Virus record (IMG/VR): IMGVR_UViG_2671181136_000008
From: a virus
Taxonomy: Duplodnaviria; Heunggongvirae; Uroviricota; Caudoviricetes
Reading direction: 5' to 3' (one strand)
DNA length: 4,074 nt
Of this stretch, positions 1-4,074 are shown in pieces (position 1 is the first letter of the stretch; each line of letters starts with the position of its first letter). The notes under the pieces were generated by a model. That model made no database searches and was not told where the DNA came from. It saw nothing but the letters and a program-made list of their open reading frames with translations. Made by a program: the position numbers and the translations under genes.

Positions 1-58
1 CGCGCGGTCAAAAAAATGCTAAAAAATATCTGAGAGAGTTATTGCCTGTTACCATAAG

Positions 59-85
59 AAAAAGCGACTTTAGTGGTCGCTTTTT
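59..85. terminator. Putative bidirectional rho-independent terminator: 10-bp perfect stem AAAAAGCGAC / GTCGCTTTTT with loop TTTAGTG
   Basis: Seen in sequence: stem 59..68 pairs with 76..85 around a 7-nt loop, with an A-run on one side and a T-run on the other, so it can terminate in either direction. It lies just 3' of the minus-strand gene 104..328. Confidence 0.5.
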
Positions 86-103
86 GTGTCATATATAAGT
101 CGT

Positions 104-328
104 TTAAGTAAACCTGTCTGAACAGGTGCTCTGGTCGTGTTTGTCTTTGTTGGGTACAAATTGAGAATATTTTTCATTAATTAATCTTCTTCTGCAGGCT
201 TCAATAACCCACGCTGAAAAATTACCTGAACCTTTCAGGTCAAGAGCGATGTTAATTTGTTCAATTATCTGGTTTGGAAATCGGATGTTGCGGGTTGTTG
301 TTCTGCGGGTTCTGTTCTTTGATGACAT
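104..328 (-). CDS. Small prophage protein, YlcI/YnfO-like (DUF3950-type), function unknown
   Basis: 74-aa ORF with ATG at 328..326. The N-terminal motif MSSKNRTRRTTTRNIRFPNQIIEQINIALDLKGSGNFSAWVIEACRRRL matches my recollection of the small YlcI/YnfO proteins that sit next to Nu1 homologs in E. coli lambdoid prophages (DLP12, Qin). Recalled, not searched. A hairpin terminator lies downstream. Confidence 0.6.
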   Translation of the reverse strand: MSSKNRTRRTTTRNIRFPNQIIEQINIALDLKGSGNFSAWVIEACRRRLINEKYSQFVPNKDKHDQSTCSDRFT

Positions 329-329
329 A

Positions 330-535
330 ATGTTGCCCCGTATTCAGTGTTGCTGATTTGTATTATCTGAAGTTGCTTTTACGCTAATTTGATGCAGATC
401 AATTAATACGATACCTGCGTAATAATTGATTATTTCTCGTGGTTTGATGGCGTACACACATGTCGTGATAAACCTCATGTAGATGATAATTATTATCATT
501 TTCGTGGGTCCTTTCCGGCGATCCGACAGGTTACG
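330..535 (+). other. cosQ-like region, the phage genome right-end sequence immediately upstream of cosN
   Basis: AT-rich non-coding stretch ending in ...TCCTTTCCGGCGATCCGACAGGTTACG directly before the cohesive-end 12-mer. As I recall it, this closely resembles the last ~200 bp of the lambda genome, with scattered substitutions. Confidence 0.6.
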
Positions 536-547
536 GGGCGGCGACCT
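536..547 (+). other. cosN: 12-nt cohesive-end sequence GGGCGGCGACCT, the terminase nicking site
   Basis: Exact match to the lambda 12-nt cohesive end, flanked on both sides by lambda-like sequence (..CAGGTTACG | GGGCGGCGACCT | CGCGGGTTTTCGCTATTTATGAAAATTTTCCGG). It sits about 185 bp upstream of the terminase small-subunit start, as in lambda. Confidence 0.85.
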
Positions 548-700
548 CGCGGGTTTTCGCTATTTATGAAAATTTTCCGGGATCCATGTCCGGTTTCTCT
601 TCAAGTTAACTATATGAAAAATATAAAAACAGGTCTTCTGTGAACCGGACATGAACAAAAAACAGACATGTAAACCGGACATGACCGGTTTTGTTGTGAT
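548..700 (+). promoter_or_regulatory. cosB-like terminase small-subunit binding region: three copies of a CCGGACATG motif (one inverted, two direct) separated by an A/T-rich putative bending segment
   Basis: Seen in sequence: CATGTCCGG at 585..593 (inverted), CCGGACATG at 645..653 and again at 675..683 (direct, 30 bp apart). An extended AACCGGACATGA core is shared by the two direct copies. A/T-rich segment 597..642 lies between the inverted copy and the direct copies. The layout parallels lambda R3-I1-R2-R1, but the repeat sequence is not lambda's. Confidence 0.5.
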
Positions 701-730
701 TGTGAGGTGAGAGTTTTTGCGAGGTGAGGA

Positions 731-1240
731 GTGGCTACGCAGACTGAAGTTGCCAGGCATTTAAGTCTGACCGATCGCCAGCTTCGCAGATTGCAGAAAT
801 TGCCGGGTGCCCCGATATCGAATAAGCGAGGGCAACTGGATCTGGATGCCTGGCGCGATTTTTACATATCGTATCTGAGGAGAAGTAAAAACGATGTGCC
901 TGATGGCGATAGCGAAGACGACTATGAGGAGAAATTGCTTATTGCCAGATGGGAACTGACAGCAGAACAGGCTGTTACACAGCAGTTAAAAAATGAGGTG
1001 TCAAAAGGAAAACTTATTGACACCGGGTTCTGTATTTTTGCCCTCAGTAAGCTGGCAATGGCGTTATCCAGTACGCTTGATTCCATCCCTTTATCCATGC
1101 AGCGACAGTTTCCTGATTTAACACCGCGCCATCTTGACCATCTGAAAACCCTTATTGCGAAGGGGGCAAATCAGTGTGCGCGGGCAGGGGATAAATTACC
1201 GGATTTACTCGATGAATATATCAGAGCAACAACTGAATAA
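731..1240 (+). CDS. nu1: Terminase small subunit (Nu1-like) with a divergent N-terminal DNA-binding domain
   Basis: 169-aa ORF with a GTG start at 731, preceded by the purine-rich GAGGTGAGGAG. The C-terminal half (..TGFCIFALSKLAMALSSTLDSIPLSMQRQFPDLTPRHLDHLK..LPDLLDEYI) resembles lambda gpNu1 (..TAFCTFVLSRIAGEIASILDGLPLSVQRRFPELENRHVDFLK..IPGLLSEYI). The N-terminal ~60 aa are unlike lambda. The 3' end overlaps the large-subunit start by 29 nt, as in lambda. Confidence 0.85.
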   Translation: MATQTEVARHLSLTDRQLRRLQKLPGAPISNKRGQLDLDAWRDFYISYLRRSKNDVPDGDSEDDYEEKLLIARWELTAEQAVTQQLKNEVSKGKLIDTGFCIFALSKLAMALSSTLDSIPLSMQRQFPDLTPRHLDHLKTLIAKGANQCARAGDKLPDLLDEYIRATTE

Positions 1241-3140
1241 TATGATGGCTGCCGTTTCGGTTGCGCTGCAGCCTCTGGTCAGGGTTGTACCAATGACGGC
1301 AGTTGAATGGGCTGATCAAAATTATTATCTGCCTAAAGAATCTTCATATGGTGAGGGAGAATGGAAAACGCTGCCATTCCAGATCGCCATTATGAACTGT
1401 ATGGGTAACGACCAGGTTCGCACGGTTAACCTGATTAAATCTGCCCGTGTTGGCTATACAAAGATGTTGCTGGGGGTGGTCGGGTATTTTATTGAGCATA
1501 AATCCCGAAACAGTCTGCTTTTTCAGCCCACGGATTCTGCCGCTGAAGATTTTATGAAGTCTCACGTGGAGGCGACGATTCGGAACGTGCCATGCCTGAA
1601 AGACCTTTCCCCATGGCTGGGTCGTAAACATCGTGACAATACTCTCACGCTGAAACGCTTTTCATCGGGCGTCGGTTTCTGGTGCCTGGGCGGTGCAGCC
1701 GCCAAAAACTACCGTGAAAAATCCGTGGACGTGGTCTGCTATGACGAGCTTTCCTCGTTCGAGCCGGATGTCGAAAAAGAGGGCTCGCCAACCCTGCTGG
1801 GGGATAAGCGTATTGAGGGCTCTGTATGGCCAAAATCCATTCGCGGCTCGACGCCTAAAATCAAAGGTACCTGCCAGATCGAAAAAGCGGCCAACGAGTC
1901 GGCGCATTTCATGCGTTTCTATGTGCCCTGCCCGCACTGTGGGGAGGCGCAGTATCTGAAATTTGGCGATGAATCCACGCCTTTTGGCCTTAAATGGGAG
2001 AAGGACAGCCCCGAAAGCGTTTTCTACCTCTGTGAACATCATGGCTGCGTGATCCATCAGTCTGAGCTTGACCAGAGTAACGGGCGGTGGATCTGTGAAA
2101 ACACGGGTATGTGGACCCGTGACGGCCTGATGTTTTTCAGCGCCCGGGGGGATGAAATTCCGCCGCCGCGCTCCATCACGTTCCATATCTGGACGGCGTA
2201 CAGTCCGTTCACCACCTGGATACAGATAGTCTATGACTGGCTGGATGCACTGAAAGATCCCAACGGCCTGAAAACCTTTGTGAACACCACGCTGGGCGAG
2301 ACCTGGGAAGAGGCCGTGGGCGAAAAACTCGATCACCAGGTACTGATGGATAAGGTTGTGCGTTACACGGCGGCGGTGCCTGCCCGGGTGGTTTATCTGA
2401 CGGCGGGCATTGACTCGCAGCGAAACCGTTTTGAGATGTATGTCTGGGGATGGGCACCGGGAGAGGAAGCCTTTCTGGTGGATAAAATCATCATTATGGG
2501 CCGTCCCGATGAGGAAGAGACGCTGTTACGTGTGGATGCGGCGATCAACAAAAAATACTGCCATGCAGACGGAACCGAAATGACCATTTCCCGTGTCTGC
2601 TGGGACACCGGGGGGATCGATGGCGAAATTGTCTATCAGAGGTCAAAAAAACACGGTGTTTTCCGGGTGCTGCCGGTAAAAGGTGCATCTGTTTATGGCA
2701 AGCCGGTGATCACCATGCCAAAAACCCGCAATCAGTGGGGCGTGTATCTGTGCGAAGTGGGGACGGACACCGCAAAAGAAATTCTCTATGCCCGTATGAA
2801 AGCCGATCCCACGCCTGCGGATGAAGCCACGTCGTATGCCATCCGTTTTCCTGATGATCCGGAGATTTTTTCGCAGACAGAGGCGCAGCAACTGGTGGCG
2901 GAAGAGCTTGTGGAGAAGTGGGAAAAAGGAAAGATGCGTCTGCTGTGGGATAACAAAAAGCGGCGTAACGAAGCGCTGGACTGCCTGGTGTATGCCTACG
3001 CGGCATTACGTGTGTCCGTGCAACGCTGGCAGCTTGATCTGGCTGTACTGGCAAAATCCCGGGAAGAAGAGACGACCCGGCCAACCCTGAAAGAACTGGC
3101 AGCGAAGCTGTCCGGAGGAGTGAATGGTTACAGTCGCTGA
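1212..3140 (+). CDS. A: Terminase large subunit (lambda gpA-like: packaging ATPase and cos endonuclease)
   Basis: 642-aa protein starting at the ATG at 1212 (MNISEQQLNN..), matching the lambda gpA N-terminus MNISNSQVN. The 1155 start in the ORF track is an upstream in-frame extension. Collinear similarity to lambda gpA runs the full length, for example TAVEWADQNYYLPKES, KSARVGYTKM (P-loop-like), GSVWPKSIRGSTPK, FVNTTLGETWEE, YLTAGIDSQ, ICWDTGGID, KKRRNEALDC. Confidence 0.95.
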   Translation: MNISEQQLNNMMAAVSVALQPLVRVVPMTAVEWADQNYYLPKESSYGEGEWKTLPFQIAIMNCMGNDQVRTVNLIKSARVGYTKMLLGVVGYFIEHKSRNSLLFQPTDSAAEDFMKSHVEATIRNVPCLKDLSPWLGRKHRDNTLTLKRFSSGVGFWCLGGAAAKNYREKSVDVVCYDELSSFEPDVEKEGSPTLLGDKRIEGSVWPKSIRGSTPKIKGTCQIEKAANESAHFMRFYVPCPHCGEAQYLKFGDESTPFGLKWEKDSPESVFYLCEHHGCVIHQSELDQSNGRWICENTGMWTRDGLMFFSARGDEIPPPRSITFHIWTAYSPFTTWIQIVYDWLDALKDPNGLKTFVNTTLGETWEEAVGEKLDHQVLMDKVVRYTAAVPARVVYLTAGIDSQRNRFEMYVWGWAPGEEAFLVDKIIIMGRPDEEETLLRVDAAINKKYCHADGTEMTISRVCWDTGGIDGEIVYQRSKKHGVFRVLPVKGASVYGKPVITMPKTRNQWGVYLCEVGTDTAKEILYARMKADPTPADEATSYAIRFPDDPEIFSQTEAQQLVAEELVEKWEKGKMRLLWDNKKRRNEALDCLVYAYAALRVSVQRWQLDLAVLAKSREEETTRPTLKELAAKLSGGVNGYSR

Positions 3141-3330
3141 ACTGCAGGCGCTGCGTCAGGCGCGCCTTGATTTATTAACCGGTAAACGGGTGGTGTCTGT
3201 CCAGAAAGATGGTCGCAGAATTGAATATACGGCAGCTTCTCTGGATGAGCTTAACCGGGCGATCAATGATGCGGAGTCGGTACTGGGGACAACCCGCCGT
3301 CGCCGTCGTCCGCTGGGAGTGAGGTTATGA
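3124..3330 (+). CDS. W: Head-tail joining / head completion protein (lambda gpW-like)
   Basis: 68 aa, the same length as lambda gpW, with clear similarity (LTGKRVVSVQKDGRRIEYTAAS here, versus [22 protein letters not shown] in lambda) and an Arg-rich C-terminus. GGAGGA Shine-Dalgarno at 3114..3119. Overlaps the end of A by 17 nt. The stop TGA overlaps the next gene's ATG (ATGA at 3327..3330). Confidence 0.9.
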   Translation: MVTVAELQALRQARLDLLTGKRVVSVQKDGRRIEYTAASLDELNRAINDAESVLGTTRRRRRPLGVRL

Positions 3331-3959
3331 AACGAACGCCTGTCCTGATTGATGTGAACGGCGTTCCGCTTCGGGAGAGCCTCAGCTACAACGGTGGCGG
3401 TGCAGGATTTGGCGGGCAAATGGCAGAGTGGTTGCCACCGGCGCAGAGTGCCGATGCGGCCCTGCTGCCCGCGTTGCGTCTGGGGAATGCCCGTGCAGAT
3501 GATCTGGTGCGCAATAACGGAATAGCGGCCAATGCGGTGGCCCTGCATAAGGATCATATTGTCGGGCATATGTTTCTGATCAGCTACCGTCCGAACTGGC
3601 GCTGGCTGGGGATGCGGGAGACCGCGGCAAAAAGTTTTGTCGATGAGGTGGAGGCGGCCTGGTCAGAATACGCAGAAGGGATGTCTGGCGAGATCGACGT
3701 GGAAGGAAAACGCACGTTCACGGAATTTATCCGTGAAGGTGTGGGCGTTCATGCGTTTAACGGCGAAATCTTTGTGCAGCCGGTCTGGGATACGGAAACC
3801 ACGCAGTTATTCCGTACGCGTTTTAAAGCCGTGAGTCCGAAACGGGTGGACACGCCAGGACACGGTATGGGGAACCGTTTTCTGCGGGCCGGGGTGGAGG
3901 TCGATCGATATGGCCGTGCCGTTGCGTACCATATCTGTGAGGATGATTTTCCTCGGTAA
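3327..3959 (+). CDS. B: Portal protein (lambda gpB-like), N-terminal ~210 aa only; truncated relative to full-length ~530-aa portals
   Basis: Strong similarity to the lambda gpB N-terminus (GGGAGFGGQ, LLPALRLGNARADDLVRNNGIAANAVALHKDHIVGH, KRTFTEFIREGVGVHAFNGEIFVQPVWDT, LFRTRFKAVSPKR). The frame ends at TAA 3957..3959 where lambda continues (..EDGYPGWMPQKW..). No portal-like translation continues in any frame over 3960..4074. Confidence 0.8.
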   Translation: MKRTPVLIDVNGVPLRESLSYNGGGAGFGGQMAEWLPPAQSADAALLPALRLGNARADDLVRNNGIAANAVALHKDHIVGHMFLISYRPNWRWLGMRETAAKSFVDEVEAAWSEYAEGMSGEIDVEGKRTFTEFIREGVGVHAFNGEIFVQPVWDTETTQLFRTRFKAVSPKRVDTPGHGMGNRFLRAGVEVDRYGRAVAYHICEDDFPR

Positions 3960-4074
3960 CCGGCTCATTTAAACCGTCTGGTCTGTTTCCTCCGGCTCTA
4001 CAAAAATAATGTCCATCATTTTTAATGGACACTATCGTATGAAACACCGGACCTGGATCACTGAAGCTTTACGT

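Follow-up and report, generated by a model that had tools for sequence, protein, structure and literature searches.

An ISCro1-like IS66-family insertion sequence as the very probable cause of portal gene truncation in a phage-21/lambda-like Escherichia coli prophage

The portal gene of a phage-21/lambda-like Escherichia coli prophage has, with high probability, been interrupted by a 2,699-bp ISCro1-like insertion sequence (IS) of the IS66 family. The element would have transposed into codon 210 of the gene (the cognate of lambda B), at portal nucleotide 629, duplicating 8 bp of the target, TTTCCTCG, and its terminus, GTAA, would set an in-frame TAA directly behind Arg210. The interrupted gene would then yield at most a 210-aa N-terminal fragment that lacks about 60% of the portal, with the remaining portal and all downstream head and tail genes intact beyond the IS. 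The portal is essential for head assembly in lambda-like phages. From this role we infer that the IS-bearing prophage has lost phage production: without a functional portal it would be unable, alone, to make packaging-competent proheads, and would thus represent a recently inactivated prophage.

The truncated portal gene and its neighbours

The window, by which we mean the whole 4,074-bp stretch of DNA analysed here, carries the features listed below.

104..328, minus strand: YlcI/YnfO-like (DUF3950) gene, immediately before cos in the reverse orientation (from ORF listing and gene calls)
536..547, plus strand: cosN, GGGCGGCGACCT, identical to bases 1-12 of the phage 21 genome (annotated cohesive end)
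536..730, plus strand: cosN and, behind it, the cosB region reaching to Nu1
731..1240, plus strand: terminase small subunit (Nu1-like), 169 aa, intact (PF07471)
1212..3140, plus strand: terminase large subunit (gpA-like, TerL), 642 aa, intact (PF05876 and PF20454)
3124..3330, plus strand: gpW-like head-tail joining protein, 68 aa, intact (PF02831)
3327..3959, plus strand: portal ORF, 210 aa, ending ...CEDDFPR and a stop (ORF and translation)
3327..3955, plus strand: 5' part of a lambda-family portal gene, from codon 1 through the second base of codon 210 (PF05136)
3948..3955, no strand: 8-bp target-site duplication TTTCCTCG, left copy; repeated directly after the right end of the IS in the long contig L023 (see below)
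3956..4074, plus strand: left end (119 of 2,699 bp) of the ISCro1-like IS66-family insertion sequence (repeat matches and RefSeq annotation)
about 3956..3977, plus strand: left inverted repeat of the IS, GTAACCGGCTCATTTAAACCGT (comparison of IS ends)
3957..3959, plus strand: TAA stop of the portal ORF, formed by bases 2-4 of the IS terminus GTAA and not by portal sequence
4009..4074, plus strand: first 22 codons of the IS66 gene tnpA (MSIIFNGHYRMKHRTWITEALR...), running off the contig end (RefSeq tnpA start and translation)

The original prediction described Nu1, A and W as full-length and undamaged, and the comparison with intact prophages agrees: Nu1 and gpW are 100% identical to their proteins (WP_000235436.1 and WP_000259002.1, respectively), and TerL is one residue apart from that of the O111:H2 12A prophage, its nearest relative in that comparison. 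Exact-sequence look-up also placed the window's exact TerL in prophages with intact 530-aa portals, on several other contigs. The closest complete-genome relatives of positions 1..3955 are E. coli prophages (99.1% identity) with 530-aa portals, and phage 21, whose portal is likewise 530 aa, is 97.9% identical to the window across 3000..3952. The mechanical ORF list starts the large terminase at TTG 1155 (661 aa, with an extra stretch at 1155..1211); gene calls and RefSeq relatives start TerL at ATG 1212, giving a 29-base overlap with the end of Nu1, an arrangement shared with phage 21. In the vicinity of cosN, the local match to phage 21 extends over 41 nt at 95%. Despite the identical cosN, the Nu1 of the window is largely dissimilar to that of phage 21 in a crude ungapped comparison, so that cosB/Nu1 specificity probably differs between the two.

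The portal ORF was predicted to stop after about 210 aa with some 320 residues missing, and it is indeed 210 aa long, against 530 aa in intact relatives, which read ...EDDFPR-SGSGRWER... where the window stops. It covers only positions 2-172 of the 354 in the PF05136 (Phage_portal_2) profile, and all 210 of its residues match the N-terminus of the 530-aa portal of O55:H7 CB9615. The loss of homology beyond the break is equally clear in the alignment to intact relatives, which sets the last portal base at 3955: megablast homology to intact phage-21-like portals (97-99% at the nucleotide level) ends at that position in thousands of records. The tail of the window had been described as AT-rich and non-coding in character, followed by a new ATG at 4039. 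It is AT-rich to a moderate degree only (42.9% GC versus 57.6% in the portal fragment), and it is in part coding, being the end of an IS with a tnpA ORF that opens at ATG 4009; the ATG at 4039 is present, but is codon 11 of this ORF rather than a gene start.

The IS66-family element and the far side of the insertion

Foreign DNA acquired at the junction had been offered as one of two explanations for the break, and this DNA can be named as an ISCro1-like IS66-family insertion sequence. When the window was aligned with three other copies, the shared sequence began exactly at G3956 (GTAACCGGCTC...) in four unrelated contexts, those of the three copies being a terminase gene, a dinI-like gene and a Stx-type phage record. 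Positions 3956..4074 match 5,339 places in 2,416 E. coli records, 1,349 of them on plasmids, as befits a mobile element, and the matches are annotated in RefSeq as 'IS66-like element accessory protein TnpA', tnpB and 'IS66-like element ISCro1 family transposase'. Complete copies are 2,699 bp long, with a GC content of 55% over the whole IS. Their ends, GTAACCGGCTCATTTAAACCGT and ...ACGGTTCTGACGAGTCGCTTAC, are complementary at 16 of the 22 terminal positions; equivalently, the left inverted repeat matches the reverse complement of the right one, GTAAGCGACTCGTCAGAACCGT, at 16/22, giving an imperfect inverted repeat that starts with GTAA. Terminal inverted repeats of the IS66 family are reportedly imperfect, about 20-30 bp long, and begin 5'-GTAA.

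The sequence beyond position 4074 was read from L023 (GCA_041227445.1), a 5.12-Mb E. coli contig that was found via the window's exact TerL and is identical to the window at 4074/4074 bases. Its IS copy, identical to the window over the shared 119 bases and different from another E. coli copy at 3 of 2,699 bases, encodes the three-gene tnpA-tnpB-tnpC layout of the IS66 family, of which the window itself holds tnpA codons 1-22 only. The three proteins bear PF01527 (E=1.8e-14), PF05717 (4.7e-40) and PF03050 (2.5e-103): the third combines zf-IS66, LZ_Tnp_IS66, DDE_Tnp_IS66 and DDE_Tnp_IS66_C domains, and the other two carry HTH_Tnp_1 and TnpB_IS66. The tnpA translation in the window matches the 225-aa TnpA of this copy, the protein with PF01527.

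If the IS had entered by simple insertion, the right junction would read ...GAGTCGCTTAC, then TTTCCTCG, then CTCCGGGAG. In L023 the complete IS is flanked on both sides by TTTCCTCG and the portal resumes at once (...TTAC, TTTCCTCG, CTCCGGGAG...), and in silico removal of the IS together with one copy of the duplication restores a 530-aa portal ORF. The repeats that were to be sought around an insertion are thus present, as a perfect 8-bp duplication and as the imperfect inverted repeats at the IS ends. IS66 generates target-site duplications of 8 bp (Machida et al. 1984, as cited in PMC6778807), and perfect 8-bp duplications also flank three other complete copies of this element (CTAAAATC, GTTCATCG and TGTTCCTG). 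TTC occurs in three of the four duplications seen (GTTCATCG, TGTTCCTG and TTTCCTCG), and a weak TTC target preference of the ISCro1-like IS is possible. The copy with GTTCATCG (L002 4007..6705; NZ_CP025862.1) lies in the large terminase gene of another lambdoid prophage, with similar hits in ETEC-2265 and strain 16843. In all these respects the element resembles its relatives IS66 and IS679, with which it shares the tnpA/tnpB/DDE transposase layout, a length of about 2.7 kb, GTAA repeats, the 8-bp duplication and many copies on E. coli chromosomes and plasmids, with no notable difference from the family.

Downstream of the portal, L023 carries an S49 protease/scaffold, a decoration protein, a capsid gene, FI, FII, Z, U, V, G and T. 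The earlier suggestion that the element lost its head genes therefore does not hold for this contig, which is identical to the window over 4074 bases and keeps the protease, decoration, capsid, FI/FII and tail genes. A 301-aa ORF (MLHIFEP...), the C-terminal leftover of the portal that had been predicted beforehand, is present in L023, and exactly the same ORF occurs under the E. coli CT-series accessions CTW48742 and CTX77862. The 210-aa fragment is found under CTW52271 and CTX74688, about 3,000 numbers away from those of the 301-aa ORF, a proximity compatible with both halves lying in the same assemblies of the window's series. Taken with the identity of the long contig, it suggests that the window's own strain (GCA_001285985.1) would have the same right-hand side as L023. 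Searching for homologues of the predicted C-terminal leftover ORF gave mainly partial sequences at contig edges, and of the right-side ORFs guessed from six relatives, four exist in the collection. One protein with CT-series accessions (P0095) was considered as the C-terminal half belonging to the window and rejected; it is five residues off the true L023 fragment and belongs to a different disruption event.

The exact left-junction pattern gave no matches in species-representative genomes, JGI metagenomes or IMG/VR. The predicted right-junction pattern likewise gave none in JGI metagenomes or IMG/VR, a result that is uninformative because the left junction is absent there too. A synthetic right-junction query had no spanning hit in complete E. 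coli genomes, from which the left junction is also absent, and none of the 5,426 complete RefSeq E. coli genomes that were searched has the insertion at portal nucleotide 629.

Other explanations for the abrupt end

The window is the entire 4,074-bp contig CYBD01000075.1 of GCA_001285985.1, as established by exact-sequence look-up of the 210-aa product. Altogether 24 contigs, none reaching 10 kb, encode this product; they derive from several isolate assemblies, from metagenomes and from SRA runs. In the nine inspected contigs that cross the junction, 28-139 bases of the IS precede the end of the sequence (119 bases in the window). Short-read assemblers break at multi-copy repeats. The end of the data at 4074 is thus an assembly effect, a short-read draft contig broken inside a multi-copy IS, and this is why the window holds no downstream portal; the portal/IS junction is itself real and recurrent.

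The first alternative to a simple insertion is an IS-mediated deletion, in which recombination between IS copies would have removed the remaining portal and the head genes and left a cos-terminase remnant. IS66 copies mediate such deletions, which are recognisable by non-matching 8-bp flanks, matching flanks being the mark of simple insertion (PMC6778807), and the window alone, ending inside the IS, is compatible with either. This alternative is nevertheless very unlikely, as L023, the only long contig with the junction, has matching TTTCCTCG flanks, a resumed portal and head and tail genes, and as the matching 301-aa C-terminal ORF is found in CT-series E. coli assemblies like that of the window.

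It is extremely unlikely that the window represents a functional module, either a naturally short portal-like protein or a selected, domesticated cos/terminase unit used, for example, in satellite packaging. The original prediction had raised both forms of this idea. A short portal-like protein is contradicted by the stop codon, which is IS sequence and not portal sequence, and by the 210 aa, which coincide with the N-terminal part of a complete 530-aa portal. An intact terminase and cos call for no selection, satellite use or domestication when the same TerL occurs beside intact portals and a near-identical empty-site allele exists; intact prophages have the same terminase proteins, so that there is no signature to interpret, and the IS-bearing prophage of L023 has since acquired a nonsense mutation in its capsid gene (described below), which points to decay.

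What gives the satellite idea some footing is that helper-embedded satellites integrate in lambda late-gene cognates, including gene B (bioRxiv 10.1101/2022.07.18.500453), and occupy the portal gene in sister prophages that share the window's TerL. Such portals, split at nucleotides 814-826, were observed in L027 (3041..12028 in CYER01000046.1; same TerL) and L032 (16341..27225 in NZ_CP049101.1), and satellite-split portals occur in at least 60 complete E. coli genomes. The 10,885-bp element encodes integrase, AlpA, Bro-N, primase, SSB, capsid, decoration and TerS genes and is flanked by a 13-bp core repeat, AAGGCGAT[G/T]TATG; its excision would restore the 530-aa portal. The element matches the published helper-embedded satellite at the gene B site. 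These loci share with the window an interrupted portal gene, a truncated portal ORF beside an intact terminase and the same or a similar TerL, but differ in that the satellites are elements of about 11 kb with integrase, AlpA, primase and capsid genes that use site-specific recombination at the 13-bp core, whereas the element at nucleotide 629 is a transposase-driven IS. Beyond the window's junction there are IS66 tnpA, tnpB and tnpC only, where a satellite (helper-embedded or PICI) would have integrase, AlpA and primase genes in the orientation of the interrupted late gene and an att core repeat on either side. Satellite insertion was accordingly rejected as the cause in the window, given the IS66 genes and the 8-bp duplication at nucleotide 629; satellites are relevant to this portal gene family, yet are not the event recorded here.

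A chimeric portal/IS join in a strain whose portal is truly intact is hardly conceivable, even though the draft contig that forms the window is short and stops within a repeat and some junction contigs come from metagenome assemblies, since the identical junction occurs in at least nine independent contigs (of the 24 with the truncated product, from isolates, metagenomes and SRA runs) as well as in the 5.12-Mb contig and bears the hallmarks of transposition, an IS terminus and an 8-bp duplication.

Age, variation and meaning of the insertion

An insertion of the IS into the portal gene would leave cos, Nu1, A and W undamaged because it is recent. The same TerL is found in intact-portal prophages and the empty-site allele L025 differs from the IS-excised L023 sequence at 5 of 14,437 bases, so there has been no time for decay. 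For the same reason, dN/dS on the terminase genes, proposed as a test for selection, is uninformative: intact relatives have the same Nu1 and gpW, and several have the same TerL too, leaving no divergence to analyse.

The major capsid gene of the IS-bearing prophage (L023 18352..19380) carries an in-frame nonsense mutation, Q227* (CAA>TAA). The resulting 226-aa truncated product occurs on three contigs, which makes a sequencing error unlikely, and none of the three has CT-series accessions, so the mutation may be a later lesion in a sub-lineage. It fits ongoing decay rather than domestication.

The junction-bearing contigs are not uniform upstream of the insertion. Their divergence from the window, compared for L004, L005 and L010-L013, reaches about 2% and is concentrated in blocks of terL (1251..2900), and two metagenome contigs and one SRA contig (ending at the junction) have 8-12 differences in the portal fragment (3327..3800) that leave the 210-aa protein unchanged. 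These upstream differences most likely arose when sister prophages resident in one cell recombined, or when near-identical prophages were collapsed in assembly; several insertions at one and the same nucleotide would be a less parsimonious account. Matches to the window region number a median of two places per genome and up to 20, and co-resident sister prophages could supply the portal in trans. With a portal provided in trans, by a sister prophage or by a helper-embedded satellite, the allele would be kept and exchanged by recombination between prophages, in keeping with the occurrence of one junction on upstream backgrounds that diverge by up to 2%. That the cos, Nu1, A and W genes are still usable in this way, with the allele persisting and recombining, or else that nucleotide 629 is a hot spot for the IS, nonetheless seems unlikely.

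IS inactivation of a prophage is an already known kind of event. Like other IS-inactivated (defective) lambdoid E. coli prophages, the one described here would be complete but for a single IS in a gene essential for morphogenesis, and the same IS also splits the TerL gene of another prophage (the L002 copy above); it differs in that the site at nucleotide 629 has been seen only in draft assemblies, metagenomes and one 5.12-Mb contig. The case is a cautionary one: where a gene breaks off near the end of a short contig and all homology disappears, the usual reason is a mobile-element junction combined with a repeat-induced assembly break, and not a deletion or a domesticated module. For E. coli itself, the insertion would record the recent inactivation of a lambdoid prophage in one lineage by a common IS, a well-known route to defective prophages.
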